Below are positions 946 through 24,569 of a DNA stretch of 64,000 nucleotides, piece after piece. This stretch comes from a virus. The translations under genes and the position numbers were made by a program. The stretch lies in the IMG/VR virus record IMGVR_UViG_2878651225_000003; one strand, 5' to 3'. Within the stretch, counting starts at the first letter, position 1, and each line of letters begins with the position of its first letter. A model generated the notes under the pieces. It ran no database searches, was not told the DNA's origin, and was given only the letters and a program-made list of their open reading frames with translations.

Positions 946-1078
946 AGTCTTATCCTCGGTAAGATGGTTGGTTAGAGGCTCTTTTAGTGCTGAGAACACT
1001 ATCGGAGCCTTGTTTGTTTTAGCAATTATCGTTATACTGTAATTACATTGAATATCATCATAATTCGGAGTAATTACA

Positions 1079-1252
1079 ATGTCAACCAAAAAAGAAAATA
1101 AATCACAACAGTACCAAATACGGCTTACTGATGAATTTCGCCAGCAATTGGAAGAACAAGCTAAAAGTGATGGCGATACCGCTTTAGCAACGTGGATTAA
1201 ACGAATTTTGCGCAAAGAACTCTCCGCGCGCGGCATTGAGCCGAAAGGGTAA
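1079..1252 (+). CDS. ribbon-helix-helix (CopG/Arc/MobC-like) DNA-binding protein
   Basis: 57-aa product containing IRLTDEFRQQLEEQAKSDGDTALATWIKRIL, a typical RHH beta-strand followed by two helices. Confidence 0.5.
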   Translation: MSTKKENKSQQYQIRLTDEFRQQLEEQAKSDGDTALATWIKRILRKELSARGIEPKG

Positions 1253-1554
1253 GGGGTTGATTTTAAAGCAAAGCCGAAAATTCGGCTCTGTACAGTGATT
1301 TCCTGATATTTCAGGAGATTCCAACGGCTCAAGGGAGTATGCCCAAATTTGGACACCCCCACCAAAAGAAAACTATTGCAATAATTTTCATATTGATTAA
1401 AATATTTATGACTTAAATTCATGTTTGGTTTTCTCTAAATTTTTCTAAATGTGGGTTTAAGTATCAGTAGGGTACTGAGTGCGTTACTGTGATCTTGCTC
1501 GTAGTTGTGAATATGATTATAAGTTTAGGCATATGCTTATAGTCATCTAGATTA

Positions 1555-3029: not shown

Positions 3030-3377
3030 ATGGAAAACGTCACAAAGTGGTTTTTTCTGCTTCGGTTTTGGGGTAGGGCGGTAAATAGTTTTTAGTGTCC
3101 GATTAAATACGGTTAATAAATTCACCTCCATGAAGTCCACCAGCAATGGAATATTACTTGTGGATTGCTGTACGGCGATAATATCCACCAGCTCCTCAAA
3201 CGTGTCTACTTGTGAAGTAACTATGAAAAATTTTCGGTTACCCAAATGCACCGCATGGAAAAAGCCAAGCTCTTCATCATAATTAAAAGTAAAATACGGA
3301 TATTGATTCTTATAGCGTGTAATCAATATCGGCAGTGCGCGAATTTCTTCGGCTTCGGTTAATTCTTGGTTCATCAT
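3027..3377 (-). CDS. hypothetical protein
   Basis: 116-aa ORF. Its stop codon directly abuts the right end of IS copy 2. Confidence 0.4.
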   Translation of the reverse strand: MMNQELTEAEEIRALPILITRYKNQYPYFTFNYDEELGFFHAVHLGNRKFFIVTSQVDTFEELVDIIAVQQSTSNIPLLVDFMEVNLLTVFNRTLKTIYRPTPKPKQKKPLCDVFH

Positions 3378-3721
3378 TTTTTTGCTCCTAGTAAATTAAT
3401 GGCGTGTTGAATTTCGTTGCCGGTGATTGGCACCAGCTCCAAATATTTTTTGTTGTGTTGCTGTTGATATTTCAATTTTGCGTTATAAAGCTCGGCCACT
3501 TTATGAATTTGTTCAGCACTTCCCAATAAATAACGGGTGTAATACCGCCCGGCTTCGCTTTTCTCTTTAACTCGCTCAATCTCAATATCTAAGGTTCTCT
3601 CAATTTCGTTCACCTCATTGCGGGCATTGAGAAAATGGCAATTGAAATAGGATTCCTTTTCGCTAATACCGATATGCGGATTAACAATTAAGGCTCTGGC
3701 CACGGTCATTAATCGGGTCAT
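3374..3721 (-). CDS. hypothetical protein
   Basis: Start at MTRLMTVARA, immediately after the alpA stop. Overlaps the downstream ORF by 4 nt. Confidence 0.4.
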   Translation of the reverse strand: MTRLMTVARALIVNPHIGISEKESYFNCHFLNARNEVNEIERTLDIEIERVKEKSEAGRYYTRYLLGSAEQIHKVAELYNAKLKYQQQHNKKYLELVPITGNEIQHAINLLGAKK

Positions 3722-3939
3722 TGGATTACTCCTCGGTTGGCTTTTTGTTGCTCGATCCATTCGTTGACTTCGGCTAAATCCCAACGGATAAAGTTGCTGG
3801 TCAAGCGGATAGGCTGCGGAAATTGATTTGTTTTGACTAACTCATTGAGTTTAGTACGCCCAAAGGACAGCATTGTCATTAGCTCGGCAGTGCTGATCCA
3901 TACTTGGTTTTTTTGGGGGAATTGTGGTTGTACATTCAT
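3718..3939 (-). CDS. alpA: AlpA-family phage/satellite transcriptional regulator (HTH)
   Basis: 73-aa product, ...TAELMTMLSFGRTKLNELVKTNQFPQPIRL..., characteristic of the AlpA/excisionase-like family found in P4-like and PICI elements. Confidence 0.7.
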   Translation of the reverse strand: MNVQPQFPQKNQVWISTAELMTMLSFGRTKLNELVKTNQFPQPIRLTSNFIRWDLAEVNEWIEQQKANRGVIQ

Positions 3940-4035
3940 TGAATAACCTCTCGTTCGTTTTGTTTCGTGGTGCTGCGTAAAGCTACGAGGGTTATTAAAG
4001 CATTAGGGATATATTCAGGTGTTATATGGGGGATA

Positions 4036-4061
4036 CAAAAAAATATCCCGCTCATATAGGC
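4036..4061 (-). terminator. rho-independent terminator
   Basis: atatcccgc/gcgggatat 9-bp stem followed on the minus strand by TTTTTTTGTAT, 30 nt downstream of the 329-aa gene. Confidence 0.6.
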
Positions 4062-4090
4062 GGGATATAGAATTATGGGTTGATATGAAG

Positions 4091-5080
4091 TTAGTTTTTC
4101 TTGCGATCAATAGGACAGGCAACAACCTCTATATATTCGGCGCGTGTTTTGCTGGTTATACCATAATAACGCATGATGTAATCTCTTATTTGAGCATTAC
4201 TTTTCACATTCTCAGGATAGCTTGACCAGTATTTATTCCGCACTTCTATGGCAATCTTAAGCGGGTCATCATCTCGGTAAACGCCTAGTAGTTGAGGGAT
4301 ATTTTTATCATCAAGTGCGGTTTGTAATTGGGCTATTTCGGTTTCTTTTTCTAGAATGATTTGTTCTTGTTTTTTGATCTTGGCTTTTAGTTGGGTTATA
4401 TCTTCGATTTGATCATAGGTTTTATCAATTACAGAAAAAAGCTCTAAAAATGAAATTAAATCTTTGTGTAAAATACAAAGATCATCTAAATATAGTTTTG
4501 TTCTGTTTTCTTCAACGGTTATTAAGCAATGAAAGCTATTTCCAATGAATGAAATGTCTGGAAACTCTTCAATAAATCCAATTTTAATTAATTCATCAAT
4601 ATTATATTGCTCGATGAACTGACTATGAATAGGCATATAACCACTAAAATAAATGTGTTTAAATTTATCCATTCCAGCACTACATAAAATAATTTCCTCA
4701 GCATTGGCTAGTTCTTCATAAATGTAATATTCAGCATTTAAATAAATGCCAAATTTAAAATAAATATTTTCAAAATATATTTCAATTGTTGAGAATTCCT
4801 CTCTTTTTAAAACCTTCGCTTTTGTTTCTGTTTTATCAAATTTAAAGAATAACCCCTCATTTCTAATAAATAATTTATTTTTCTTGTCTACTTCTTTTCT
4901 ATTAATCTCTGTTATTTTACTGTGTGAACAATGTAAATGAATGGAAGACTTTAAAGCTCCACTCTGAATATATTCTAATATGTCTTTTTCTGAGATATTT
5001 ATATTATAGTTGCCTGAGATATATTTTACAGTGTCACTAATCGAGTAGGACTTTTTAGGCAATACTTTAAGAGTGGTCAT
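4091..5080 (-). CDS. hypothetical AT-rich protein with a central coiled coil. Candidate accessory or defence cargo.
   Basis: 329 aa. It is visibly more AT-rich than the surrounding genes and has no recognisable motif. Confidence 0.5.
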   Translation of the reverse strand: MTTLKVLPKKSYSISDTVKYISGNYNINISEKDILEYIQSGALKSSIHLHCSHSKITEINRKEVDKKNKLFIRNEGLFFKFDKTETKAKVLKREEFSTIEIYFENIYFKFGIYLNAEYYIYEELANAEEIILCSAGMDKFKHIYFSGYMPIHSQFIEQYNIDELIKIGFIEEFPDISFIGNSFHCLITVEENRTKLYLDDLCILHKDLISFLELFSVIDKTYDQIEDITQLKAKIKKQEQIILEKETEIAQLQTALDDKNIPQLLGVYRDDDPLKIAIEVRNKYWSSYPENVKSNAQIRDYIMRYYGITSKTRAEYIEVVACPIDRKKN

Positions 5081-5217
5081 AACGCCCCTTTCGCATTTAT
5101 CCTTAAGAGTGGAAACACGCCAACAAGATAAGGTGTCTTGCTTTCGGGGATCGGCCTAGGCGTGTTTGATACTTTGATTTTATACTGTTTATTTGTCGGT
5201 CTCAAGGCTGAATAACG

Positions 5218-5942
5218 CCCAAATAACAATCCGCACGTGAAACGTGCGGTTTTTCGGCTACCCTATAAGGGCCTAGTACTTCACATGCCCCTCAAGAGGC
5301 ATGTGAAAAGACTGACAACTGCACAATAACTCTGTGGCTTACCCCTTAAAGGGGTCCACATATTCTTTCTTCGATAAATTATCTTGAATCATGTCTTCTT
5401 TTTCCTGATTCCTGATATATTCCTCTACCACTTTTGTATTTAAACCCACTGTACTTACATAATAACCCTTTGCCCAAAAATGTCGGTTTCCATACTTATA
5501 TTTTAAGTTTGCATGTCTTTCAAAAATCATGAGCGATGATTTCCCTTTTAAATATCCCATGAAACTTGATACTGCCAGCTTTGGCGGGATTTTTAATAAC
5601 ATATGGATATGATCTTTCATTACATGGGCTTCTATTATTTCGACATTTTTGTAATGACATAACTGCCTTAATATGCTGCCTATATCCATTCGTAATTTCC
5701 CATAAATCGCTTTTCGTCTGAATTTAGGGGTAAAGACTATGTGATACTTACAGTTCCATCTTGTGTGTGATAAACTCGAATCGTCATTGGATTTATTTGC
5801 CATTGGCATATCCTCCTATATTTTGAATTTTGGTTGTCAGCCTTATTCATTATATCGGAGGATTTTTTCTTTTCATCGCTTAAGCTCTTTGATTCCATAC
5901 GCATAGCGTATGGTTTTTATAGGCAGTCTTCGTCTGCCTATA
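5218..5942 (-). mobile_element. IS200/IS605-family IS, copy 3, inverted relative to copies 1 and 2
   Basis: Reverse complement of the same hairpin ends. Confidence 0.85.
5339..5809 (-). CDS. tnpA: IS200/IS605 family transposase TnpA
   Basis: Identical in aa sequence to copy 1. Confidence 0.9.
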   Translation of the reverse strand: MPMANKSNDDSSLSHTRWNCKYHIVFTPKFRRKAIYGKLRMDIGSILRQLCHYKNVEIIEAHVMKDHIHMLLKIPPKLAVSSFMGYLKGKSSLMIFERHANLKYKYGNRHFWAKGYYVSTVGLNTKVVEEYIRNQEKEDMIQDNLSKKEYVDPFKG

Positions 5943-5989
5943 AATAAAAAAGCACTACTTTAGTAGTGCTTTCTCAATGCTATTATTGC

Positions 5990-6160
5990 TTAAGCAGCGT
6001 TTTTATTTTTATGAATCTTTTTTCTACCATGCGCTTCTTGTCCTTTACACAAAAAGCGATCATCATTAAGCATTTTAGGGGCGGCATTTATTAGCAGTTC
6101 CATTGCCTTTCCGGTGCGCTCATAAACTTCTTTAGCTGAAAATTCTATTGATTTTTTCAT
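5990..6160 (-). CDS. small basic protein (56 aa) co-transcribed downstream of the GNAT gene
   Basis: AAGGTGGA RBS. Starts 10 nt after the GNAT stop codon. Lys/His-rich C-terminus. Confidence 0.4.
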   Translation of the reverse strand: MKKSIEFSAKEVYERTGKAMELLINAAPKMLNDDRFLCKGQEAHGRKKIHKNKNAA

Positions 6161-6170
6161 ATTATCCACC

Positions 6171-6707
6171 TTAATTACTTTTGATACTATCTTCAATAAG
6201 ATTTTGTAATTTATCCATTCCTAAAATAAAATCTTCTTCGCCATCTTCTACAAAACCAAATTGCTTATAATAGCTTCGTAGAATTTCATTACCTTTTTCA
6301 ACATCAATTAGCTTAATATATTGCCCCTGAATCTTTGACATGAATATAAAAGTGGCAAACATAGAAAATAAAAACATTTTCCCATCTAGATGGACACTAT
6401 TGCCAAATTTCTCAATGCCATAAATTTCTAATGTTTCAGCTTCAATTTTATAAGAGGCTAAAAAAACACCTATTGGCGCATCAATTCCTTTGCGTGTTGC
6501 GTCTTTTAATTTAAGACAAAAGTCAAAACTACTATCTGTACTATAATAACAAGTAATAATGTAATCCCAATTTAGGTCCCCATAACCACGTTGGAGTAGT
6601 ATAAAGTCATTATCGTTTATGCTGCCTACCGCGATAGGTAAATCAAATTGCTCAAGGAGTAACTGAAAATCACATAGAGTTGCACTAACTAGGTGTTCAA
6701 ACTTCAT
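6171..6707 (-). CDS. GNAT-family N-acetyltransferase-like protein
   Basis: The C-terminus, GQYIKLIDVEKGNEILRSYYKQFGFVE, resembles the GNAT acetyl-CoA binding and motif B region. AT-rich. Confidence 0.45.
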   Translation of the reverse strand: MKFEHLVSATLCDFQLLLEQFDLPIAVGSINDNDFILLQRGYGDLNWDYIITCYYSTDSSFDFCLKLKDATRKGIDAPIGVFLASYKIEAETLEIYGIEKFGNSVHLDGKMFLFSMFATFIFMSKIQGQYIKLIDVEKGNEILRSYYKQFGFVEDGEEDFILGMDKLQNLIEDSIKSN

Positions 6708-6849: not shown

Positions 6850-8517
6850 TTATAAATCTATGCCGTTGAAGTTATCAAGGGCGGTTTTGTGCGATTCGCT
6901 CATTTCAAAGGCAATATCGCCATATTCCAGTTGATACGTGCCGAACGCCATTAAGAACGCAATTGCCGGATCTATTTTGTTGGCGGCTTTCTTCTTGTTG
7001 GGCTTGATATTGGCGTTGGCGTCGGTTTCCATAACCACATTAGACAGCGCCCACGCTAAAACCGGATCGCCGTTGTGTTCGATGACCTGCCGATTAATCA
7101 GCACTTCCGCCGATTTCGCTACCGGGCTGAAACGCTGATAGGTTTGGGGGAACGGTTCTACTTCAAGCCCTGCGCCTTGTAATTGGGTTCTTAGGTGTGT
7201 GGCGTTCCATACGTCAAAGCCGATTGTTTTCAGCTCAAATCGTTCTGCGTCCTTTAGAATATCGTCGCGGATTTTGTCATAATCGATACAATCGCCCTCG
7301 GTGGTGATCAGCCAACCTTGCCGCACCCATTGCCGATAGATTGCCCGATTCTTGTTGGCCACGTTGTTAAGCTGAAATTCGGGGATATAGTGCCGGGCAT
7401 ACAACCGCACTTTGTTACCATGCGGAAAGGCATAACATACGCTGGTTAAATCGTTGGTGCTGGATAAATCCAAGCCCATATAGCATTCTTTCAGGTGTAA
7501 ATCGGCTTCACTGTAAACCCGTTGGCACGCCGCCCAATTGCCATCCCCCAGCCACGGCGTAGAACCTTGGCACCACACATTAAAGCGCTTAGTCAGCATT
7601 TCCACCCACTCCGACGGTATGCCGCGCGCTTTCTTGATGGTATTTTCAAAATCTAAGTGCGGTATCGATTTGCCGATATTCGGATTAGCCTTGATCCAAT
7701 TGTCGGGGTTGTCTATTTCGCTCTCTTCGTCCAGCTCAAAAATCAGCACGAATAATGAATCGTTCTGCTCGTTGCCGTCTAAAATTTGACAACAATAATC
7801 ATAATGCTGTTTACAGGCAGAAATAACGTTACTGCCGGCAGTGGTGATCGCAAATAGCAATCCCTCAGGGCGTGCGCCTTGTCCTAATTCCAGTGCGCTG
7901 TACACGCTGTTATCACTGTGTAAGTGGTACTCGTCGACAATCGCTAGGCTGGGATTGGTTCCCTCTATTGTGCTGGATTTCGCCGCCAGCGGCCGCATAA
8001 GGCTGTTGTTTTTCGGGTAGATCATTTTATGCTGCAGTATGCTGACCCGTTTTTTAAGCGGCTTCGATAGCAAGCACATTTGGCGTGCGTCATCAAACAC
8101 GATTCGAGCTTGGTCTCGGCTGACGGCGGCAGTGTAAATATCCTGTTGCCCCGGCTCCATAATCAGAAACCAGTTAGCCAGCACGGCGGCAATGGTAGAT
8201 TTAGCGTTTTTGCGCGCCACCTGAACATAAGCAGAACGGTATTTTCTTAATCCAGTCTCTTTATGCTTGAAGCCGAACAGGTTGGCAAATAAAAATTGTT
8301 GCCAGTCTGAAAGCTCAATCGGCTGGCCGCGCAAGTGGCCTTTAACGTGCGGGCATAACTTGGCAAACGCCATAAATCTGTTAACGGTGCTTTCGTCAAA
8401 GGTGTAACGAGGGTTTTCCAAGTCCGAAAAATAGCGTGCCACCGCCTGTTTTATGCGCTTACAGGCAATGATTTGCCCGTCTTTAACCGCCGTTGCGTAG
8501 TTATGCCATTCGCTCAT
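6850..8517 (-). CDS. phage terminase large subunit
   Basis: 555 aa with an N-terminal ATPase and a C-terminal nuclease (...IVDEYH...; ...TTEGDCIDYD...). Lies directly downstream of TerS. Confidence 0.85.
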   Translation of the reverse strand: MSEWHNYATAVKDGQIIACKRIKQAVARYFSDLENPRYTFDESTVNRFMAFAKLCPHVKGHLRGQPIELSDWQQFLFANLFGFKHKETGLRKYRSAYVQVARKNAKSTIAAVLANWFLIMEPGQQDIYTAAVSRDQARIVFDDARQMCLLSKPLKKRVSILQHKMIYPKNNSLMRPLAAKSSTIEGTNPSLAIVDEYHLHSDNSVYSALELGQGARPEGLLFAITTAGSNVISACKQHYDYCCQILDGNEQNDSLFVLIFELDEESEIDNPDNWIKANPNIGKSIPHLDFENTIKKARGIPSEWVEMLTKRFNVWCQGSTPWLGDGNWAACQRVYSEADLHLKECYMGLDLSSTNDLTSVCYAFPHGNKVRLYARHYIPEFQLNNVANKNRAIYRQWVRQGWLITTEGDCIDYDKIRDDILKDAERFELKTIGFDVWNATHLRTQLQGAGLEVEPFPQTYQRFSPVAKSAEVLINRQVIEHNGDPVLAWALSNVVMETDANANIKPNKKKAANKIDPAIAFLMAFGTYQLEYGDIAFEMSESHKTALDNFNGIDL

Positions 8518-8883
8518 TTACGCCCCTAGCTGGTCTAACTCGTCAATATCTTCGGTTTCCACAGGCGTTTTACGGCGGCTGACCGGATCGAAACCCAGCA
8601 AAGACGACATTTTAATCATGATTTTTTCGGCGTCCGCTTTCGCAGTCAGTGCCGGATTGCGGGCTTCCGTGCCTTGTGAGTTGGTGATCGAAAAGCCACG
8701 CTGTGCCAAGTCCTGAACCGCCCGGCGATAAAGCGAGTAGTTCAAGCAGTACATTTCAAGGTGAACTAAATCCGCGTCTTGAATATCGCCACGCTCCAAG
8801 AGTTGTTTAATTCGGGCTTTCCATTGCTGTGTTGCGATCTCGTCTAAGTAGTCCGGTACTTTCGGGGTTCTGCGTCTCGTCAT
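8518..8883 (-). CDS. phage terminase small subunit (P27-family-like)
   Basis: 121-aa product that overlaps or abuts TerL. Typical P27 TerS layout with an acidic C-terminus. Confidence 0.7.
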   Translation of the reverse strand: MTRRRTPKVPDYLDEIATQQWKARIKQLLERGDIQDADLVHLEMYCLNYSLYRRAVQDLAQRGFSITNSQGTEARNPALTAKADAEKIMIKMSSLLGFDPVSRRKTPVETEDIDELDQLGA

Positions 8884-8939
8884 TGTGTGTCCTATATTTT
8901 CAAAAAAATCATCGTGCGTAAAAATTAGAGGGGGCGGGC

Positions 8940-8975
8940 GGTTCTTAGGGGAAGCGCTTTTGTTTTTAAAACTCC
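8940..8975. other. GC-rich imperfect inverted repeat. Candidate cos site.
   Basis: agagggggcgggcggttcttaggggaagcg ... ctccccccacccc lies immediately upstream of TerS in otherwise AT-rich DNA. Similar in character to lambda cosN (GGGCGGCGACCT). Confidence 0.3.
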
Positions 8976-8997
8976 CCCCACCCCATGTCAGTTCTAA

Positions 8998-11709
8998 TTA
9001 AGTAAAAGCTCCGCCAGCACGTAAGTTATTCATTATTCGCCGATCTGCTGCGCTCTCTGCTATCTTATTCATTGTCTCGATCAGCTCTACAGTCAGCTTC
9101 ACTTGCCCATTTTCTTCTGATTGGGTCACTTTTGCTTTCATTGGCTGCCCATAGTTATTTACTTCTACCTTGATAGGCTTGTTTTGTGTGGTGGTGTGGA
9201 CTGTTGGCAGGCTCATACCACCACCGCCGGAGAATCCTCTTGAGCGTTTTTGGTAGTTCAACATATCCAAATAATCAACACCTAAGCGACTTGTGGCTTC
9301 TTTCGTCAGTACATATTCGCCCTTATGAACTATTCCTGCGGGTTGATATTTGCCACCGTAGCCGGTAAAACCGCCATCATCAAAGCCTGCCAAACCGCCA
9401 TGCGCAAAAACAAACCCGCCATCAGATTTCCCACCCATCCATGACATATCAAAACCAAGGGCTTTACCGCCAGCTTTAAGAGCATTAAATATCATCATCT
9501 TGATAATCATATTAGATATGTCTTTAATGATAGATTTTGCCAATCCTCGGAAGTCCGCTTTCCCCGTCATTACCAAATCAGTTAAGGCACCACTCATACC
9601 GCCCAATGCTTGTTGTGTGATTTGTGACACATTACCCATAACATCCATTGCGGAATCACCAAACTTAGCAAAGCCATCTTTAAGCCCTGCTATTGGATCG
9701 GCTTGCGTCAGCTCCTTGAGCTTAAATAGCTTTTCTTGTTGCTTTTTGACCAGCTCGTATTGCTTAGTTAATTCAGATTGATATTGCGGAGATAGCTGGA
9801 TCATCAGCTTTTGATATTCCATCTCTAGCTGATTGGCAGCGGTTAGCTTTTCTCTTTCGCTGGCAAGTAAGCCAATCATGCTTATTTCATCAGTCTGAGC
9901 TTGGATTTTCTGCTTCTGAGCGGTGATAAAATCACGAATCTGATCTACTTCGGATTTGCCGCGTCCTTTTTTCTTTTCGCTGCTAAGATTAGATAAAGCG
10001 GAAGATACACCCCCTTGAGATAAGTCAACCGGATCATCTTGAGCATTTGCTTCTTTGCCTCTTAATCCAGCTTGAGCGAGGTATTCATTCAGACCTTGAC
10101 CCAATCCGCCTAAGTAGTCTTTGCTATTGGCGATGTTATAAATCTTGTCTAATTCTTTTTTAAATGATTTCTCTGCTTCTGTTGGTGGCAAAATAAAATC
10201 ATCTAGCCTTACTTGCCAGCCTGACGTATCTACCAACCCGCCATCTTTACCAAATGATTTAGCAATATAATTTAGTAGCTCTATTGGTGCTTTAAGAAAA
10301 TCAATGATCTTGTTAACGCCCATTTCCACAAGTTTAACCAATCCATTAATCGCCGCTTTTCCAAAACTTCTCATTGCCACCGGGAAATTACTCCAGATTA
10401 ATTTGATCGATTGATAGCTAAAATCAAAGATACCAATAAACCGATTCCCAATATGTTTTCCAGCGGCTAAAAGCTCATTAAGGGATTGTGAAACAGTGGG
10501 CACTATATCGCCGAAATATTTGCCTACCTCTTGGGTAGCTGTATCAAAGGTGCTTTTTAACCAACTTCCAGCATCCGAAATGGCATCTTTGAAATCCATC
10601 CAAACGCCTGTAGCCACATCGCCCCATGTTGTTTGTAGTACATCAGAACCAAACTGGAGATCCGATATAAACTGATCGAACACATACGCCGCACCAATTA
10701 CACCGGCAACAAATAACCCTAACGGATTTTTAAATAATGCGGTTGTCGTACCATTTATAGCTACGGTCAACCTATTAAAGCCCGTTGCCATTAATCCCAC
10801 ACCTTGAAGATTTGCCCTAAATTTTGTTGCGGATGAAATTAGATTAAAAGAAGTGTAAGCGGATGCTGCGTACAATGTCGCTTTAGCCAGCGTATCAAAG
10901 TTTAATGCTAGCGTGGATATAAGCCCGGCAAGTCCTCCCATGACCCCGGTAGATGATTCAATCCCGCCAACCCATGACATAACACTATCTTTCATTTGTG
11001 TCATGGCTTTGCCGAATGTAATAGGCAATTCATTAAACTCAGCTTCAATCTTTTCCCTTGCGGATCTCATGGACTCAACAATAATTTGAGAAGTAATAAC
11101 TCCCTCGCTTGATAATTTTCTAACCTCGGCAGCACTTTTCCCCATATATTCGGCAACTACTTCAAGAATAATCGGGGCATTTTCAGAAATAGAGCGGAAC
11201 TCATCACCTTGTAACCGCCCAGAACCTAATGCCTGTGAGAGTTGATAAAGCGCTGCCGATTGTTCTTGTGCGCTTCGTCCACCCAGTGCCATTGCTTTAT
11301 TTAAAGTTTCGGTGAAATCTAAAACTCGCTGTTGACTATAGCCATACTCTTTTAATGCCCTTGTCGAACGTGTATATAAAGAGATTGTTTCATTCATTCC
11401 GGCGTAGGTATGCTGTGAAATATTAAATAATTCACGTTGCACTTGTTTATATTCTTGGGTTGAGGTTGTTACTAACCTAATTTGAGAATTTAAACTCTTC
11501 ATGGTGTCAGACATTTGAATTAGTGAGTTAATTCCACCAATCCCCATTCCTACTGCCATCAATGATTTTAAATCTCTAACCATTTTCAATAATGAATTAA
11601 CAGATTTCTCCGTTTTTCCCGCTTGAAGTTCGATCGTTTTTAATTCATCAGTGACCTTTACCGCGCCAGTTGATGAAATTTGAATACTTAATTTTGCGAA
11701 GTCTGCCAT
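8998..11709 (-). CDS. phage tail tape measure protein
   Basis: 903 aa with a helical N-terminal half, a GxxxG-rich hydrophobic core, and a C-terminal region paralogous to the TMP at 56794. Confidence 0.8.
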   Translation of the reverse strand: MADFAKLSIQISSTGAVKVTDELKTIELQAGKTEKSVNSLLKMVRDLKSLMAVGMGIGGINSLIQMSDTMKSLNSQIRLVTTSTQEYKQVQRELFNISQHTYAGMNETISLYTRSTRALKEYGYSQQRVLDFTETLNKAMALGGRSAQEQSAALYQLSQALGSGRLQGDEFRSISENAPIILEVVAEYMGKSAAEVRKLSSEGVITSQIIVESMRSAREKIEAEFNELPITFGKAMTQMKDSVMSWVGGIESSTGVMGGLAGLISTLALNFDTLAKATLYAASAYTSFNLISSATKFRANLQGVGLMATGFNRLTVAINGTTTALFKNPLGLFVAGVIGAAYVFDQFISDLQFGSDVLQTTWGDVATGVWMDFKDAISDAGSWLKSTFDTATQEVGKYFGDIVPTVSQSLNELLAAGKHIGNRFIGIFDFSYQSIKLIWSNFPVAMRSFGKAAINGLVKLVEMGVNKIIDFLKAPIELLNYIAKSFGKDGGLVDTSGWQVRLDDFILPPTEAEKSFKKELDKIYNIANSKDYLGGLGQGLNEYLAQAGLRGKEANAQDDPVDLSQGGVSSALSNLSSEKKKGRGKSEVDQIRDFITAQKQKIQAQTDEISMIGLLASEREKLTAANQLEMEYQKLMIQLSPQYQSELTKQYELVKKQQEKLFKLKELTQADPIAGLKDGFAKFGDSAMDVMGNVSQITQQALGGMSGALTDLVMTGKADFRGLAKSIIKDISNMIIKMMIFNALKAGGKALGFDMSWMGGKSDGGFVFAHGGLAGFDDGGFTGYGGKYQPAGIVHKGEYVLTKEATSRLGVDYLDMLNYQKRSRGFSGGGGMSLPTVHTTTQNKPIKVEVNNYGQPMKAKVTQSEENGQVKLTVELIETMNKIAESAADRRIMNNLRAGGAFT

Positions 11710-11711
11710 GA

Positions 11712-12092
11712 TTAATTCTCCTTGGTTTTACTCTTAACCGCACCAAATCCACGATTATCTATCACCCTTGTCTTGTAGCTGTGACAGTCACGGCATAAGG
11801 CTTGATGATTGTCAGCCGCCCAAAACAGCGGATCGGCTTGACCGTTCTCAATTGGCTTAATGTGGTCTATCACCGTTGCCGGCGTGTATTTGCCTTTGGT
11901 TAAGCACATCACACATAGCGGGTGCGCCTTGAGGTATTGCGCCCGGTATTTGCTCCAACGGCTATCGTAGCCACGCTGTGCGGCGGATGGGCGGTTATCC
12001 TTGGGCTTGTGTTCGTCACACCGTCCGAACCGCACTTTGTTACGGCAACCGGGATAGGTGCAACGCCGTAATGGCTGAAAGGGCATAAGCAA
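11712..12092 (-). CDS. phage-associated HNH endonuclease
   Basis: C...C ... VIDHIKPIENGQADPLFWAADNHQALCRDCH: Cys/His HNH zinc motif. Confidence 0.8.
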   Translation of the reverse strand: MLMPFQPLRRCTYPGCRNKVRFGRCDEHKPKDNRPSAAQRGYDSRWSKYRAQYLKAHPLCVMCLTKGKYTPATVIDHIKPIENGQADPLFWAADNHQALCRDCHSYKTRVIDNRGFGAVKSKTKEN

Positions 12093-12097
12093 TCACC

Positions 12098-12409
12098 TCA
12101 ATATAAACCGGGTTCACGGTACACATTCCATAACGCGCTAATCGACATTGGCACGGCATGCAGTGGGGTATCGGTAGTGATTTCCCGATTGGCGTACAAA
12201 TGCCCGACATACATCAAACAGCCAATCTTGATAGACTGATTAAAGGGTACCGTCTTATCGGTCAGACTATCGCCAAAAGTTTTACCGATATGTGTCTGTG
12301 CCACCTCAAGGGCGGCCGCGATATAACCCTGAATCAAATTGTTGTCCATATCGTGATCGACAATTAACTGCGCTTTAGCTTCGTCTAAGCTGATTAAACT
12401 ACCGGGCAT
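12098..12409 (-). CDS. gp6-like head-tail connector protein
   Basis: ISLDEAKAQLIVDHDMDNNLIQGYIAAALEVAQTHIG is typical of the Phage_connect_1 N-terminus. Confidence 0.65.
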   Translation of the reverse strand: MPGSLISLDEAKAQLIVDHDMDNNLIQGYIAAALEVAQTHIGKTFGDSLTDKTVPFNQSIKIGCLMYVGHLYANREITTDTPLHAVPMSISALWNVYREPGLY

Positions 12410-12740
12410 AGGCTTCCCCCTCTTTACACATCAATTGAATTTCTCGGTGACTTTCTCGGCTGTCTATCACCGAATAAATCGCCAATAGGCGATCACCGTA
12501 TTTCAACCGCATTTTATTGGTGATGTTCGGCAGATAGCGAATGCGCACCCGGATAATGTTTTCTCCCAATTGATAAGGCCCGCTAAAGTATTCCCGTCCT
12601 TGTAAGGGTTCGATAGCGGCGTGAACGGTAGTCACGTCTTCCCATGTGGTCGTATGGTGTCCGTAATTGTTCGGTGTGCTAATCGGGCGTTGGATTGTGA
12701 CCTGCTTGTTATAGCGTCCTGCCTTAATCATTCTTGCCAT
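12399..12740 (-). CDS. phage head closure / head-tail adaptor protein
   Basis: 113 aa, Phage_H_T_join-like (…TTWEDVTTVHAAIEPLQGREYF…RVRIRY…). Confidence 0.6.
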   Translation of the reverse strand: MARMIKAGRYNKQVTIQRPISTPNNYGHHTTTWEDVTTVHAAIEPLQGREYFSGPYQLGENIIRVRIRYLPNITNKMRLKYGDRLLAIYSVIDSRESHREIQLMCKEGEAYAR

Positions 12741-13955
12741 CGTTCGCCCCTTTCTTGCTATCGCCTTTTTTCACTTCGACGGTCTGCTTCCATGCTTGAC
12801 TAAATTCATCACCACCGGCATACGGGGTTAACCCCTCTTTACGGCGAACTTCATTCGGGCACATCACGCCGGATTTAATCGCCACATCGTAACTATCGAA
12901 GCGGTCGTTCTGACTGGTACGCAATAAATCGCTGGTGTCAAATTCGATTAAATAGCGCGGTGAAGTGCGGTTCAAATCCACCATTAACGCGTCTTTTAAC
13001 TGCTGCTCGAAGTTGGTTAACCACGGGCGCAAGGTTTGCGATAAAAAGGCTCTGCTGGCTTCGCTGAAATTGCTGTAGCTGCTGTTGGAATAGTCTTGTA
13101 AAAAATCGGACTGATATTGAAAATTCGGGCAATATCGCTAATCGTGAAAGTACGGCTCTGTAGCCATTCCGCATCTTGGTTTGTCATGCCAAGCTGTTTA
13201 TACTCCATTGAGCCTTCCAGCACTGGGGTTTTCCCAGCATTGGCGGCACCACGATAACGATCAAGCGATTTTAACGTTTTTTCACCCTTAACGCCGTCTA
13301 ACCATTCCGCTGTCGTAATAATCCCACTGGGCATTAAGCCGTTTTTCATCACCGCCGATCCATGGCGTTGCTGTGCTAATCCCAGCCCAATGGTTTCCCG
13401 GCAAATCGTAATCGGCGAACGCCCGATAAAGCCGTCATCGGACGAGTGGCGCAAGTGTAAAATCTCGTCCTGTAGATAGGTTTTGACCTTGCCACTTAAA
13501 TCAGTGATTTGATAAATATAGCTGCCGTCGGCCTTACGCTGAATATTAACCGCACTTGGGGGGTATGGCGTTAACGATAACGGCTCACCGCTTTTATCCC
13601 ACTCAATCACCGCATAGGCATTACCATTTAACAAACAGTGCCTCATCATCGTGTATTTGAACTGGTACGGCGTTTGATTGCGGTTCGGCATTTCATTCAG
13701 CAAGAAATCCACCGCACTGTTAAATACCCGTTCCCGTCCGTCTTTTTCCAAGCGATACAGATAACAGGGCATAGCAGCCACCGCTTCACTGATCACCGTG
13801 ACCGCATTCAATACCGCAGGCAAGGCTTCGGCCGTGGACGGGCTGACAAATTCCCCCGCGCCGGTATTGCTTGCCCCGAGATAAGATAAATACTCGTCAA
13901 CGGTGAACGCATTGCGTTGTTCCGTTTTGCGTTTAAATAAACCAAACATGATCAC
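12724..13955 (-). pseudogene. HK97-family portal gene interrupted by a -1 frameshift in an A6/T6 run (~13101-13106)
   Basis: The N-terminal 312 aa (13017..13955) end ...DIARIFNISPIF. The conserved portal C-terminus, YSNSSYSNFSEASRAFLSQTLRPWLTNFEQQ..., continues in another frame (12724..13032). Adding one T would restore a single reading frame. Confidence 0.75.
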
Positions 13956-14500
13956 ACCTCAGCCAAATCCGCCCACCGCTGATAAAGTGCGGTAGGGTTC
14001 TGTTGTTTTCGGGCTTCTGCCATTGAGCGCTGGGCGATTTGAACACTGTTTTCCGGATAGGCGGGAATGCTGGTTATAGTGATTTCTACCAGCTCGGCAC
14101 GATTGACGGTGCGCAACATCGGCTCCTGTTCAAAATCCCACGAATCGGACAGGGTACGGAAACCGAACGACATACCGGAAATATCGCCACGTTCAACCGA
14201 TACCAGCAAATCACGCCCTAATGTGGTGTCTGGCGGTACTAACTCAAAACGTAAGCCGGTGTTATCTTCCACCAGCGATAACGTACCTGCCGCAGTTCTG
14301 CCCAGTAATTTAGTGTGATCGTGTTCAAACAACGCCCGCACGTCTTGCCCCTCGGCCAGTGATTCCGCAAACGCATTGGGCGCGAACTGCTCGACAAAAT
14401 CCCATAGCGGTTTAGATTGGCTGTTCCAACGCACCACATAGCCGATTAATTTTTGATTATCACAACTGATTTCTGATGACCGGGTTTCAAATTCTTTCAT
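13952..14500 (-). CDS. HK97-family prohead protease
   Basis: ...RALFEHDHTKLLGRTAAGTLSLVEDNTGLRFE... is a conserved prohead protease (S78) motif. Confidence 0.85.
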   Translation of the reverse strand: MKEFETRSSEISCDNQKLIGYVVRWNSQSKPLWDFVEQFAPNAFAESLAEGQDVRALFEHDHTKLLGRTAAGTLSLVEDNTGLRFELVPPDTTLGRDLLVSVERGDISGMSFGFRTLSDSWDFEQEPMLRTVNRAELVEITITSIPAYPENSVQIAQRSMAEARKQQNPTALYQRWADLAEV

Positions 14501-14551
14501 ACTGTCCCCACTGATAAAAAAGGGGACTTGCCGCCCCCTGATTCCCTCGGC

Positions 14552-15733
14552 TTATGCCTTGGTTTCAATAAATTTGATGGCGTTGGAATCCACCACGCCA
14601 CCGCCTAAATATTTATCGGTGTGGACTTTATAAAAGCCCGGTGAGGTGATGCTATCCGGACGCGTACGGACGCCGGTTTCATGATCCACAATGTAATAAC
14701 CGCGCTTGAAGTCACCCAAGGCGATCACCGCTTTACCTGCGCCGCCTGTCGGCATGGTTTCCAAATAGTGAACCGGTAAGCCTAACAGGGTGGCGGGCGC
14801 ACCGGCAGATAACCCATCACGCCAGATATAATCACCGTTACCGTTTTTCAGTTTTTGAAGTTGAGCGGCAATCGCTGAACTCATCACCCACACCGCATTT
14901 TTACGATATTTACTGTGTAACGTATAAAGCAGATCAATCAAGCTATCGGCGGTAATCCCTGCGGCGTTCGCCACTTCCAATTTTTGAAGTGTGCCAAAAG
15001 CACGCGTTTTATCGGCGGTGGTCGCACGGGTATTGGTTAATAAACCTTTCGCTTTTTTATCGCCGTCACCGTCGGTTAAATCGGTTTCTTCGGTTTCGGT
15101 AAAGGTTTCGCTGATTTCTTCCGTCAGCCAGCCCAGCACATCAATTGAGCTGAAATCCAAGATTTCTTGGGTGGTTTTCGGATAGGCATAAATCGCATTT
15201 AAGGCGATAGTGACTTCATTCAGTTTCGGCGTATTGGTTTCCGTGCGTGCTGTGCCTTCCGTTCCGTGTTGAACCGTGGCACCACCGGCAGAAACCAATT
15301 TTTTATACTCTTTTGCCCCCATCGGCAAACGCACCACATGACAAATTTGACGCATAACGCTGTCATCGGTCAAACGGGTCATGACTTGCTTATCCAACTG
15401 CGGAATAACCGAATAGCCGCCGTCATCTTTGGCGGTGGTGGACAGTGAACGCAATTCGCCCGTTTTGATGTAGTGGCGCAAATCGTCATTGTTTAATGGT
15501 GCCTGCTTGGTTTCTACCGGCTGCCCCTGCTTACTGCGCTCTTCATCGGCTAACGATTCATAGCGCGCAATATCGGTATTCAGTGCGGTCACTTGGTTAC
15601 GCAATTCGTCAAAGGTTTTTGCTTCCTCATCGCTTAAACTGCGGTTTTCGGTATCGGCTTGGGTCAGCATATTGCGCATATCCTCAGCCAGTTTTGCCTT
15701 TTGTTGGCGTAATTCGAGTAATTTTTTAAACAT
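14552..15733 (-). CDS. HK97-family major capsid protein
   Basis: N-terminal coiled-coil delta domain, GGYSVIPQ, LTDGDGDKKAKGLL, and C-terminal FIETKA. This is the HK97 gp5 architecture. Confidence 0.9.
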   Translation of the reverse strand: MFKKLLELRQQKAKLAEDMRNMLTQADTENRSLSDEEAKTFDELRNQVTALNTDIARYESLADEERSKQGQPVETKQAPLNNDDLRHYIKTGELRSLSTTAKDDGGYSVIPQLDKQVMTRLTDDSVMRQICHVVRLPMGAKEYKKLVSAGGATVQHGTEGTARTETNTPKLNEVTIALNAIYAYPKTTQEILDFSSIDVLGWLTEEISETFTETEETDLTDGDGDKKAKGLLTNTRATTADKTRAFGTLQKLEVANAAGITADSLIDLLYTLHSKYRKNAVWVMSSAIAAQLQKLKNGNGDYIWRDGLSAGAPATLLGLPVHYLETMPTGGAGKAVIALGDFKRGYYIVDHETGVRTRPDSITSPGFYKVHTDKYLGGGVVDSNAIKFIETKA

Positions 15734-15959
15734 GGTGATTAATCCCTTGAAAGTTATCTTAATTAAGACGGCTACAAGTAGCCCATATCATAAGATAAAC
15801 ACTTCTAAGATGTTGTAAATAGAGGGTTTTTAAAGCGATAGGGTGCGAAAGAGTACGAACAAGGAATTTACAAAACTATTTAAGGGTAACTGGCTTTTTT
15901 CACAAATTGATCGTGTTTTTCGATCTTACTTTTGCCAAGGAATGAAATTGATAAATCTA

Positions 15960-16080
15960 TTTTTACCCCCTTATCTATTCTTTATCTATTTATTCATCTA
16001 CTTCTATTTTTTCTTTAGAAATCAAAAAAATAAATATATATAAGAGTAAATAAATAGATAAGTAGATAAGAATCTAAAAG
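15960..16080. repeat. AT-rich imperfect inverted repeat built from TTATCTA(T/C) motifs
   Basis: ttatctattctttatctatttattcatctac ... gtagataagtagataagaatcta, located between the int terminator and the capsid gene start. Confidence 0.5.
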
Positions 16081-16099
16081 TTTCAAAAAAATATATGAG

Positions 16100-16131
16100 C
16101 ATATAAAAAAGCCAACCTTAAAGGCTGGCTA
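16100..16131 (-). terminator. rho-independent terminator downstream of island integrase
   Basis: agccagcctttaaggttggct hairpin followed by ttttttat on the minus strand. Confidence 0.55.
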
Positions 16132-16145
16132 GTGCTTCTCTTGGC

Positions 16146-17420
16146 TTAAGCATTGACAACTTGAAGATGAAACTTTGGTATAACGTTTTGTGCTGATTGT
16201 TCGACATAATCGCCCCACCACTGAAGCATATCAAAACGATGTGGCAGATATTCAGCTCTCAAGTAAGCCATGCGGACATCATCGTTATTAATATGTGATA
16301 AGGCTACCTCGATTAAATCTTTATCAAATCGGCGTAAACCGTCTGGCGTTCTGGCTTCGTTCAAGACTGTGCTGGCAATTGCGCGCATACCGTGCGCCAC
16401 CAGCTTGCCTTGGTACCCAATTCTTTTAATGGCGGCGTTTGCCGTCTGCGTGTTTATGTGGGTTGCTGGGTTTTTAATGCTTGGGAATAAATACGTTTTG
16501 CCACCACTGATTTTTTTGATTTCACGAAGAACTGCGATAGCTTGCTTTGATAGCGTAACTTTATGTTCTCGCCCCTCGTCGGTAGTTTTTAAGCCTTTTT
16601 GAATGTAGATAGTCCATATTCTTTCTTTCTCGTTTATATCGCTGTAGCGCGCTGTGGCGGCTTCTGCTGGGCGTGTCATTGTCAGCAGTTGCCATTGAAT
16701 TAAAAGCCGCGTAGTGAGCGTTAAATTAGCGTTTGCGAGGGCTGTCAAAAATTCGCCCAATTGTTCCGGCTTGATTGCTTTCATGTGGGTAACGGTTGGA
16801 CTGTCAAATTCTTTTCCAATGTTGGCAATTGGATTGTTTTCAATAATTCCCCGGTGTAAGGCGTAAGTCATGATTTCATTCATTTTCTGAATTGCGCGTT
16901 TTAAGGTTTCCAGTGTTCCACGGATTTGTAGCGGCTTAAACGCATTGATAGCCATAAGTGCGGTAATTTGTGTTATTGGCAATTCGCCAAAGTGGGGCAG
17001 TATATGGCGCTCGATCATGCTCCAAGTATCGGCGGCGGTTTTTGCTGAAAAGTGGGCGCGAGTTCTGCGTTCTTCAAACCATGCGGCGGCAATTTTGGCA
17101 AACGTATTGTTATCTGCCTGTTGTTGCCGTTCTATTTCTTGTTGTTGGTGGAGTTGCGGATCGATATTTTGAGCTAGCAATGCTTTAAATTCCTCCCGCT
17201 TGGATCTTGCTTGAGCAAGAGAAAGATCAGGATAATTATTTAGGCTGATATAAGTGCGGTTTTTAGTTATCGGCTTGTAATAATTAAATTGCCATGTTTT
17301 CACCCCGTTGGGTTTCACCAACAAATACAAGCCGCCACCATCGGCAAGATGATACGGCTTTTCTAATGGTTTTGCTTTATCAACTTGTGTATTGGTTAAC
17401 CTCTTAACAATCCTAGCCAT
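16146..17420 (-). CDS. int: tyrosine recombinase / integrase (P4-type)
   Basis: 424 aa with an N-terminal arm-binding domain (GGGLYLLVKPNG.KTWQFNY) and C-terminal catalytic residues (…HGMRAIAST…RAEYL). Confidence 0.9.
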   Translation of the reverse strand: MARIVKRLTNTQVDKAKPLEKPYHLADGGGLYLLVKPNGVKTWQFNYYKPITKNRTYISLNNYPDLSLAQARSKREEFKALLAQNIDPQLHQQQEIERQQQADNNTFAKIAAAWFEERRTRAHFSAKTAADTWSMIERHILPHFGELPITQITALMAINAFKPLQIRGTLETLKRAIQKMNEIMTYALHRGIIENNPIANIGKEFDSPTVTHMKAIKPEQLGEFLTALANANLTLTTRLLIQWQLLTMTRPAEAATARYSDINEKERIWTIYIQKGLKTTDEGREHKVTLSKQAIAVLREIKKISGGKTYLFPSIKNPATHINTQTANAAIKRIGYQGKLVAHGMRAIASTVLNEARTPDGLRRFDKDLIEVALSHINNDDVRMAYLRAEYLPHRFDMLQWWGDYVEQSAQNVIPKFHLQVVNA

Positions 17421-17436
17421 ATCAAGCCTCCGGGCG

Positions 17437-17495
17437 TTTTTAGTAATACGGTTTTTAGTAATACGATCGGCATATTACTAAACGTATTACTAAAA
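17437..17495. promoter_or_regulatory. four copies of a TAGTAATACG motif (two direct, two inverted). Candidate integrase arm-type or operator sites.
   Basis: tttttagtaatacggtttttagtaatacga…catattactaaacgtattactaaaac lies immediately upstream of the int start. Confidence 0.45.
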
Positions 17496-17603: not shown

Positions 17604-17630
17604 TGGTGGAGCTGGCGGGAGTTGAACCCG
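17604..17630 (-). other. ssrA: 3'-terminal fragment of ssrA (tmRNA): attachment-site core
   Basis: The minus strand reads CGGGTTCAACTCCCGCCAGCTCCACCA, matching the tmRNA T-arm/acceptor/CCA 3' end. The rest of ssrA is absent. A hairpin plus T-run terminator lies just downstream on the minus strand (17535-17575). Confidence 0.7.
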
Positions 17631-17681
17631 TGAGCTGAAAGGCGGTATCTTATTGATATTTAAATTGAATTTTTAATAGGC

Positions 17682-18848
17682 TTATCCTTGCGGATCATAT
17701 ACGGCTCTTTCTACATTACCCTGATACTCTTTGAGATAAGATCCATAGGTGCGGAAAAGCATTTCAGGTCCTTTATGTCCCATTTGTCTTGATAACCAAA
17801 ACAGATTAATTCCCCTGCTAATGTGCATTGTAGCAAAGGTGTGGCGAGTTTGATAGGGATTGCGGTAACGAATACCTGCCTTCTTTAGCGTTGGCACCCA
17901 CGCTTTTTTGCGGATAGCGTCTGCGCCCGCCCATGGTTTTTTGGTTTTTGGATCGCTGAAAACATGATCGTGTTTGTTTGTGAAATCTTTTTGATCTAAC
18001 AGGGCAGAAAGAGCGAGGGTATCAAGTTCTATTATTCGATTGCCAGCTTTCGTTTTAGTGCCTTTGATTACGCCGACAACCTTTGCTTTTTGTATGTGGG
18101 CGGTTTTTGCGTTGAAATCAATATCTACCCAACGCAATGCACAGAGTTCAGAGCTACGCAAGCCGGTTCTGAGTGCAAATAAGAATAGATTTCGCCATTG
18201 TTGGTAGCGGCAATTGTCTAAAATTAATTGCACTTCTTCAGGTGTAAATGGATCAACTTCGTATTCATCATCTGAATTGCCGTCCTGTTTTTTAGCTTTA
18301 TAGCGATCAACAGTAACAGTGGCAACCGGATTAATTTGAATTACACCATCCATGACCGCTTCATCGACTGCTGAACGTAATACAGATAGCTTATTACGGA
18401 TTGTTTTAGATGTTGTATTTTGCTGCTTGATCCAATTTTTCACCATTGCAGGGGTGAGTTGGGACACGACTACTGAATGGAAATGCGCTAGACCGTTGAT
18501 AACTTTTAAATATCCATCAAGAGTAGAGGGGGATAAATTACGTTTTCTGCATGTTTCAACATACTCATTGAGATAATGTAATACAGTTACTCCTTCGATC
18601 ATTTTACCAAACAGTTTTAGCTTTGGAGATGTAGGAAAGTAGTCAGCGTAGTGAAAAGTATTCCGTTCTATCTTGTTTTGAATTTCACCCAATAATCGGG
18701 CGGCATAATTAATATTTGATTGAGTAACGGGTAAATTTAACGGCTCTCGGCAGCGTACACCACGAAATGTAAATGTAATATTAATGGTTTCTCTACTTTT
18801 ATGTTTGCGAATAGTTATGCCGCGTGGATTTTGTTTTTTCTCGCCCAT
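17682..18848 (-). CDS. int: tyrosine integrase of lambdoid prophage
   Basis: 388 aa with an N-terminal arm-binding domain and C-terminal ...RHTFATMHISRGINLFWLSRQMGH...Y catalytic region. Confidence 0.9.
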   Translation of the reverse strand: MGEKKQNPRGITIRKHKSRETINITFTFRGVRCREPLNLPVTQSNINYAARLLGEIQNKIERNTFHYADYFPTSPKLKLFGKMIEGVTVLHYLNEYVETCRKRNLSPSTLDGYLKVINGLAHFHSVVVSQLTPAMVKNWIKQQNTTSKTIRNKLSVLRSAVDEAVMDGVIQINPVATVTVDRYKAKKQDGNSDDEYEVDPFTPEEVQLILDNCRYQQWRNLFLFALRTGLRSSELCALRWVDIDFNAKTAHIQKAKVVGVIKGTKTKAGNRIIELDTLALSALLDQKDFTNKHDHVFSDPKTKKPWAGADAIRKKAWVPTLKKAGIRYRNPYQTRHTFATMHISRGINLFWLSRQMGHKGPEMLFRTYGSYLKEYQGNVERAVYDPQG

Positions 18849-24433: not shown

Positions 24434-24569
24434 AATTTATATCCTTTGAGTGATTTTAATTGCCCTACTGTTGAGATAGGGTGATCGGGTGCTTCAACAC
24501 TGCTCAAAGTCAGCCTTTCGTTTTCCCTTGCGGTATTGTATGTACGAAACGCCACCCGATCATAAAATC

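Follow-up and report, generated by a model that had tools for sequence, protein, structure and literature searches.

Proteobacterial phage-inducible chromosomal islands that form capsids (cf-PICIs) have a conserved published order of packaging genes, major capsid protein (MCP)-protease-portal-connectors-hnh-terS-terL, and the packaging modules of satellites and of their helpers were reported to be organised differently. The same order is among the criteria with which He et al. (2025) searched for cf-PICIs, and the cf-PICI model of SatelliteFinder treats tail and holin profiles as "forbidden". In the PLE satellites, tape-measure proteins (TMPs) encoded by the satellite replace the TMP of phage ICP1 in chimeric tails, and its own TMP lets PLE11 deploy Rta, an inhibitor that targets the TMP (Mathur, Boyd et al., Nature 2026; PMC12987554). 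Extended Data Fig. 10b of that paper presents a sample of cf-PICIs with putative tmp genes, and cf-PICIs with a TMP are a rare variant already noted by others. The present work concerns the IMG/VR virus record IMGVR_UViG_2878651225_000003, a stretch of 64,000 nt (the window), in which an earlier note had described, at positions 6850-17420, an island of capsid and tape-measure genes in scrambled order. Our analysis indicated that this region is probably the packaging half of a cf-PICI of about 20.1 kb, belonging to a Pasteurellaceae lineage and located at the 3' end of ssrA in the type strain of Pasteurella testudinis.

This account is one of sequence analysis throughout, the satellite behaviour of the island being read from its genes. 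The window belongs to assembly GCA_900454705.1, whose proteins are named Pasteurella testudinis, one accession bearing the name DSM 23072; its left and right continuations were taken from loci L002, L005 and L137. Genes were called from an ORF listing together with Pfam, PHROGs and NCBIfam profile searches, RNAs with Rfam and defence genes with PADLOC. A scan of IMG/VR based on the MCP yielded 501 relatives, and 80 of these loci were retrieved and compared. Among the loci referred to below, L006 is the closest relative, L132 comes from another P. testudinis strain, L134 from Testudinibacter and L004 is the island of Escherichia coli O157, while L014, L016, L135 and L136 are P. multocida cf-PICIs that carry a TMP.

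Gene order and identity of the island

The gene calls of the earlier note, including the minus strand shared by all the genes listed and their order of transcription, were borne out by ORFs and by Pfam, PHROGs and NCBIfam profiles. The first gene encodes a P4-type tyrosine integrase of 424 aa (16146-17420; Arm-DNA-bind_3, Phage_int_M and Phage_integrase, PRK09692-like) and is followed by a terminator-like hairpin (16110-16130). Then come the HK97-fold MCP of 393 aa (14552-15733; PF05065, 1.6e-63), 73-89% identical to those of the 80 relatives, the S78 prohead serine protease (13952-14500; PF04586, 1.1e-48), the portal gene (12724-13955), which is interrupted, with a Phage_portal profile split over two ORFs (13017-13955 and 12724-13032), the head closure or head completion protein Hc1 (12399-12740; PF05521, 7.9e-29; phrog_25) and the gp6-like head-tail adaptor Ad1 (12098-12409; PF05135; phrog_40). 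The HNH endonuclease, partner of a cos terminase (11712-12092; PF01844; phrog_144), is separated by a TMP gene from the small terminase TerS, of P27 or Terminase_4 type (8518-8883; PF05119, 3.5e-22), after which the large terminase TerL (6850-8517; TerL_ATPase and TerL_nuclease; phrog_9, 2e-171) closes the operon.

The note had assumed that described cf-PICIs keep the order HNH-TerS-TerL-portal-protease-MCP, and hence that the present order was new. This is false for Proteobacteria, as the published text and the EcCIEDL933-type island of E. coli O157:H7 indicate: the latter encodes, on one strand, MCP, protease, portal, head closure, connector, HNH, a small ORF, TerS and TerL. The same order was found in the record of Pasteurella "phage" Pmp8 (15.3 kb, OR544139), and the series MCP-protease-portal-head closure-adaptor-HNH-TerS-TerL recurred in every one of the 80 retrieved IMG/VR relatives, where it is continued, as far as the contigs allow, by an accessory gene, AlpA, Ash and a D5 primase. 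The order is thus the norm of the family and the element is ordinary in this respect, so that the claim of a scrambled island dissolves. The discovery of the same order in ordinary complete phages had been named beforehand as the outcome that would undo this claim; what was found amounts to the same in spirit, with the cf-PICI family in the place of the phages.

The range first flagged covers only half of the element, which extends from attL at 17604 past the left edge of the window to attR (L005, about 13938). To the left of window position 1 lie two small ORFs, then a D5_N/DUF5906 primase-helicase of 596 aa, then attR beside metF (L002, L005). The apparent lack of replication genes in the first description was therefore an artefact of the coordinates chosen and of the window edge, AlpA, an Ash/Icd-like regulator and the primase-helicase all being present. 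At the integrase end, attL is a fragment of the ssrA (tmRNA) 3' end (17604-17655, minus strand, ending in ...GGGTTCAACTCCCGCCAGCTCCACCA) with a weak Rfam tmRNA match; in L006, L132 and L134, the homologous integrase gene directly follows an intact tmRNA whose downstream sequence is the same. Arm-type repeats of the integrase occupy 17436-17495 on the minus strand, with two copies of TTAGTAATA(C/T)G followed by two inverted copies of GTATTACTAAAAAC, and the opposite end of the island has two further direct copies (L005 13846-13870), which are kept in L132 and L134. Genomes with different flanking genes (L132, L134) likewise keep the junction at that end, which reads ...GTCGCCAGCAA..CAAAAAA and precedes a host terminator. 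A long direct repeat was considered as the attL/attR marker and discarded, the comparison of three genomes revealing only a short core and an imperfect attP/attB similarity. The intact ssrA of this genome lies at L137 19668-20033, about 53 kb to the right of the ssrA fragment and beyond an interposed prophage.

With such content, the element is very likely a cf-PICI with the canonical gene order. It has a P4-type integrase at one end beside a specific attachment site, marked by the ssrA fragment and by arm repeats at both ends, an AlpA regulator (3718-3939, minus strand) and its own primase, its own capsid genes for MCP, protease, portal, adaptor and connector (the portal being frameshifted in this assembly), and its own HNH, TerS and TerL, in the proteobacterial order from capsid to hnh-terS-terL. 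The integrase, AlpA and ssrA fragment cited in the note are indeed all present, and tail tube, baseplate and lysis genes are absent from the island by Pfam and PHROGs, as it had stated. The island contains a single tail gene, the TMP, which places it outside the strict "no tail genes" rule of SatelliteFinder, while the island carries no complete tail module and agrees with the looser rule of He et al. Its size of about 20.1 kb exceeds the range of about 10-18 kb (median 14 kb) given for cf-PICIs; compared with the 16.2 kb of L134, the surplus corresponds roughly to the 2.7-kb TMP gene and three IS200 copies.

The note had offered two explanations, a heavily rearranged prophage remnant and a new satellite type that builds its own capsid. 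That an HK97-like prophage lost its tail, lysis and replication genes here is very improbable. The phage-like head genes, the single tail gene, the IS elements and the frameshift recall a remnant superficially, but an HK97-like phage would present terS-terL-portal-protease-MCP-adaptors, then tail and lysis genes; here the order differs and the modules are absent. The same compact layout (int, AlpA, Ash/Icd, D5 primase, att arms) recurs in the 80 IMG/VR loci and in several genomic copies of about 16 kb, it matches the published cf-PICI organisation, and versions that lack the TMP hold the same ssrA site, L132 and L134 sharing both the architecture and the att arms at ssrA. As for a new satellite type, the idea of an element with its own capsid genes and without a tail or lysis module stood, while its novelty is scarcely credible, nothing but the order itself, unlike that of HK97-like phages, speaking for it, and this order being the defining organisation of proteobacterial cf-PICIs, in an island that shares 48-71% identity in its packaging proteins with the island of E. 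coli O157 (Hc1 27%).

The tape-measure gene and its relatives

The unusual feature of this cf-PICI is the cargo that the note had singled out, a tail TMP gene between HNH and a cos-like site (8998-11709, minus strand), which is intact and encodes 903 aa. Its assignment is solid (TMP_3, 5.9e-63; TIGR01541 tape_meas_lam_C, 130.9 bits for a cutoff of 104.75; phrog_339, 1e-144; also Tape_meas_lam_C and TIGR02675). A misread primase-helicase was considered for this ORF and rejected in view of the strong TMP profiles and of the true primase elsewhere. The TMP start lies 2 nt past the HNH stop, an AAGGAG ribosome-binding site is located within the 3' end of HNH, and no terminator-like site was found between TMP and its neighbours; on these features, the gene appears embedded in the late operon and translationally coupled. 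NCBI contains the identical protein three times, under separate P. testudinis accessions of which one is named for DSM 23072, and it occurs on both contigs of this assembly.

The slot itself varies within the family. Among 64 relatives with both genes, the gap from HNH to TerS spans 108-530 nt in 62 and about 2965 nt in the other two, which hold an intact TMP of 909 aa. Upstream of terS, a GC-rich block (GGGGTGGGGGGAG ... CCGCCCGCCCCCTC; 8928-8984, minus strand), which would act as the cos region, is near-invariant in relatives with and without TMP, and it lies downstream of TMP in all the islands that carry this gene. The insertion thus sits in the variable part of the intergenic region, and the TMP gene reads as captured cargo, taken up where the stretch from HNH to the cos-like block varies. 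L006, L132 and L134, the closest islands, have no TMP and have intact portals. L006 carries other inserts, a 264-aa ORF between MCP and protease (5339-6133) and a 91-aa ORF in the HNH-to-TerS slot itself (8949-9224), so several intergenic positions of the late operon take cargo.

The nearest full-length homologues of the island TMP (50-52% identity, 906-907 aa) are found in siphophage tail modules of ordinary layout (tube-chaperone-TMP-gpL-gpJ), and a scan of species-representative genomes with a TMP alignment retrieved phage contexts only, in Haemophilus and Rodentibacter. The gene is a real TMP gene, derived from a phage. A copy of the TMP of the neighbouring prophage was excluded as its source, the two having no similarity, and peptide patterns revealed no close TMP relatives in IMG/VR.

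In P. multocida, a different allele occupies the same HNH-to-cos slot. Intact TMPs of 909 aa are encoded there in L014 (4518-7247), L016 (4707-7436) and L135/L136 (9001-11730), the last two being complete islands of about 16 kb beside tRNA-Val, and one P. multocida TMP cluster at 90% identity comprises 24 sequences. Assemblies GCA_054376535.1 and GCA_042436715.1 are examples of P. multocida strains whose cf-PICIs bear a TMP. Pmp12, a further candidate for a TMP-bearing satellite, was discarded as the remnant of a Pm86-type prophage. The P. multocida allele is Pm86-like, with 76-89% identity to the TMP of phage Pm86; it is 49-54% identical to the window TMP over the first 550 aa, the C-terminal third being unrelated.

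The P. multocida TMP genes are mosaics. The backbones of L014 and L016 share 93-100% nucleotide identity, while their TMP interiors share only 60-86% in places, and window-by-window comparison with Pm86-like phage TMP genes (L087, L096-L104) revealed interior blocks with 98-100% nucleotide identity to the latter. The gene ends behave differently: over the initial 200 nt and the final 300 nt, identity is 96-98% among satellites and 66-86% to phages. The four satellite proteins, all intact, begin with MADFATL... and finish with ...AGGMLAR, whereas phage copies have MTDFAKLH... and ...RQGGVFA, and over the last 110 codons the satellite copies differ by synonymous changes only (dN = 0, dS = 0.03-0.04). 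We read this pattern as that of a single old insertion into the lineage of P. multocida, on which gene conversion by co-resident phages would still be acting. Intact ORFs and a conserved size of 16 kb are, in these islands, suggestive of selection, short of proof. The P. testudinis allele may be either an independent capture or an allelic replacement; a 14-nt motif upstream of the TMP start is common to the window and to L014/L016, and is too short and AT-rich to be taken as the sign of a single ancestral insertion.

Other tail-related genes occur in this family, which is described as free of them. In many Pasteurellaceae cf-PICIs, one or two tail terminators of gpU-like type (Phage_tail_U) are encoded upstream of MCP and/or downstream of TerL, such as L132 3764-4177 and 11689-12114, L134 11691-12116, L135/L136 4481-4891 and L001 14914-15321.

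State of the island and possible role of its tape-measure protein

From a mechanistic point of view, the behaviour of the island may be outlined by analogy with EcCIEDL933, from which this course of events is known. A helper phage would induce the island, which would be excised by the action of integrase and AlpA and replicated by its own primase-helicase. The late operon would then provide small HK97-type capsids, HNH, TerS and TerL would package island DNA from the cos site, and filled heads would be joined to tails made by the helper. During assembly of these tails, the satellite TMP could replace the helper TMP or compete with it, leading to chimeric tails as in the Vibrio PLEs, and this could free the satellite from the helper TMP or from factors that target it. 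Such a part in chimeric tail assembly is, tentatively, the role we favour for the island TMP, on the model of the PLEs. The TMP is probably functional, with regard to its undisrupted 903-aa ORF, its ribosome-binding site, the lack of a separating terminator and the intact P. multocida TMPs in the same slot. The further suggestion of the note that an own TMP would re-measure helper tails found no support: satellite TMPs are of 903-909 aa and their nearest phage homologues of 904-907 aa, so no change in tail length is expected.

A broader version of this proposal may be put forward, although we regard it as rather doubtful. A sub-lineage of Pasteurellaceae cf-PICIs would keep a private TMP, accompanied in P. 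multocida by a gpU-like terminator, with satellite-specific termini and a gene-converted interior; this TMP would direct chimeric tails that are reserved for satellite capsids or that are insensitive to exclusion or defence targeting the TMP, and the island of P. testudinis would represent a further case, arisen independently or by allelic replacement.

Several observations weigh against these proposals. The island shares with the PLEs a TMP of its own, but neither a tail assembly chaperone, a baseplate hub, a holin nor a lysin was recognised by Pfam or PHROGs in any of its ORFs, and the window island has no gpU-like gene or remnant alongside its TMP. The TMP of the adjacent prophage is unrelated, and no homologous phage TMP from this genome is present among the top 120 matches, so that no compatible helper is evident. 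Among close relatives, the allele occurs in the type strain only, its cluster at 90% identity having a single member, and a recent neutral capture has to be reckoned with. The small-capsid particles of PICIs observed in P. multocida had contractile, Mu-like tails, which fits poorly with a siphophage-type TMP serving the satellite's own tails, and a tail donor of Pm86 type should not be assumed. Finally, with its portal frameshift and its 20.1 kb, the present copy may not be mobile at all.

The portal frameshift corresponds to one missing C before a T run near 13104 (1-nt deletion), as aligned with the intact portal of L006; the portals of relatives are intact, with 407-408 aa. The repaired portal sequence was not found by exact look-up in the protein collection, and the frameshift may be either a real mutation or a PacBio assembly error. 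The attR spacer, CGCCAGCAACAAAAAACC, is 4 nt shorter than that of the other P. testudinis strain, CGCCAGCAAATAACAAAAAACC (L005 13925-13950, compared with L132 and L134); the difference may reflect a sequencing error or else a lesion that bears on excision. Taken together, the portal frameshift, the three IS200 copies, the shorter spacer, the size of 20.1 kb compared with about 16 kb, the lack of gpU and chaperone, and the lack of an evident helper with a matching TMP indicate that this copy is probably crippled; to call it oversized presupposes a packaging size limit, which we infer. In the same assembly, a contig of 17 kb (L003, UGSY01000002.1) repeats the part from protease to IS200 with many frameshifts and passes, at the IS200, into chromosomal genes that are unrelated (aldolase and TRAP transporter genes), as a result of either misassembly or an IS200-mediated structural variant.

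Such damage agrees with a rival explanation, in which the TMP is a non-functional passenger that illegitimate recombination with a co-replicating siphophage brought in and that has yet to be lost, within a decaying cf-PICI. The restriction of the allele to the type strain among close relatives, the frameshift and IS200 copies in the same island, its surplus of about 4 kb over intact relatives and the lack of a chaperone or of a matching helper TMP would all be expected of a passenger. It is nevertheless difficult to reconcile with an undisrupted 2.7-kb ORF in an island whose portal is disrupted, and with the tight coupling of this ORF to HNH and its own ribosome-binding site. The P. multocida islands, moreover, keep intact TMPs at about 16 kb, with the shortest TerL-to-AlpA accessory region of the family, and their satellite-specific TMP ends differ by synonymous changes only. 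We therefore consider a passenger possible, yet unlikely.

A third role, as an interference or counter-defence factor, is less probable still. The TMP would then act as a dominant-negative protein that spoils the tails of competing siphophages, or as a decoy that titrates defences of the Tab or Rta type. TMPs are the targets of the tail-assembly-blocking Tab and Rta, and the related Tai system, carried by PICIs, prophages and P4-like satellites, also blocks tail assembly, although its target is seemingly the J protein rather than the TMP. The phage-identical interiors and different termini of the P. multocida satellite TMPs, and the presence of siphophage-like TMPs in satellites whose small-capsid particles have myovirus tails, could be understood in this way as well. 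A neutral account, in which gene conversion stops short of the ends of the homologous segment, explains the divergent termini equally well, however, and PADLOC matched no defence gene among the accessory ORFs.

The island itself, which looks damaged, is a poor model. P. multocida could serve as a workable system in which to ask whether chimeric tails are made by cf-PICIs, as they are by PLEs, with one slot holding different TMP alleles in two species, satellite-specific termini and phage-identical interiors. TMP-bearing islands tend to be rejected by SatelliteFinder, which forbids tail genes, and are probably under-counted.

Surroundings of the island and comparison with known satellites

Left of TerL, the accessory and regulatory region (3027-6707, minus strand) has the same slot and order in relatives. 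It comprises two small conserved ORFs, p178 (6171-6707) and another (5990-6196), both on the minus strand, an IS200 insertion (tnpA, 5339-5809), an int-alpA RNA motif (5101-5166, minus strand; 43.3 bits, above the gathering score of Rfam), p329 (4091-5080, minus strand), AlpA and two small minus-strand ORFs (3374-3784 and 3027-3377). The p329 gene encodes 329 aa at about 30% GC and has no Pfam, PHROG, NCBIfam or PADLOC match, and in many members of the family the TerL-to-AlpA slot is likewise filled by homologues, with 24-51% identity; p329 may be described as a conserved accessory gene to which profiles assign no function. The int-alpA motif lies upstream of p329 and AlpA, yet 11 kb and the entire packaging operon separate it from the integrase gene, which points to a rearrangement, in this lineage, of int with respect to alpA.

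Further left, two more IS200 copies on the plus strand (1715-2906; tnpA 1715-2185 and 2436-2906, PF01797, 1e-39 each), not present in L134, are inserted between the small ORFs and ash. The Ash/Icd-like regulator of 473 aa (1-1422, minus strand) harbours a C4 antisense RNA of P1 type (585-673, minus strand; Rfam, 65.6 bits) and an isrK-like RNA (722-801, minus strand; 60.7 bits), and Rfam also matched a c4-a1b1 target within this gene, the RNA stretch covering 585-814 on the minus strand. With these three elements, the island carries an ImmI-like antisense control module.

The ssrA locus holds a tandem array (17604-64000, continuing to about 71.0 kb in window-equivalent positions) of tmRNA, remnant, siphoprophage, ssrA fragment, cf-PICI and metF. 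The remnant, of about 2 kb, consists of a truncated integrase and a NikA-like gene. The siphoprophage, of about 50 kb, is complete (int 17682-18848, TerL, portal, Mu-F, tube, TMP 56740-59283, gpL/K/I/J); it also carries an RNA of the sRNA-Xcc1 family (24475-24561, 69 bits), a 629-aa C5 cytosine methylase fused to an HNH_3 domain (24692-26581) and a tRNA-Met gene (34005-34081).

Compared with known systems, the island is closest to Pmp8 and the P. multocida cf-PICIs, which belong to the same lineage: packaging proteins are 66-84% identical, and the genes follow one another in the same way, from MCP to TerL and on to AlpA, Ash and the D5 primase. These islands are intact and of about 16 kb, whereas the present one is larger and has a frameshifted portal; in P. 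multocida, int is located at the far end, inverted, by tRNA-Val instead of ssrA, and a gpU-like terminator is found upstream of MCP. EcCIEDL933 and the other proteobacterial cf-PICIs (Alqurainy et al., 2022/2023; He et al., 2025) possess the same set of genes (int, AlpA, primase and packaging), the same order within the packaging operon and, likewise, no tail tube or lysis genes. Differences concern the order of the modules, int-packaging-AlpA-primase here, as in most Pasteurellaceae relatives, and int-AlpA-primase-packaging in E. coli, the replicase, of D5 type here and DUF927 in EcCIEDL933-type islands, the TMP between HNH and terS, which EcCIEDL933 lacks, and the size, 20.1 kb here and 15.4 kb for EcCIEDL933.

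Satellite-encoded TMPs are otherwise known from two more distant systems. The PLEs of Vibrio cholerae, especially PLE11 (PMC12987554), encode a TMP as this island does, but they form an unrelated satellite family which has no capsid of its own and a myovirus as helper, and they also encode a tail assembly chaperone, accompanied in some cases by a baseplate hub. Identity between the PLE TMP and that of the helper is only about 20%, while P. multocida satellite TMPs reach 89% identity to a phage TMP. The EPIP satellites of Mycolicibacterium (bioRxiv 2025, PMC12822802) are small elements with head-tail adaptor genes and a TMP, through which, as their authors suggest, they hijack tails. They differ from the present island in their actinobacterial host, serine integrase and gene set, and their particles have longer tails of variable length, whereas the TMP found here is equal in length to those of related phages.

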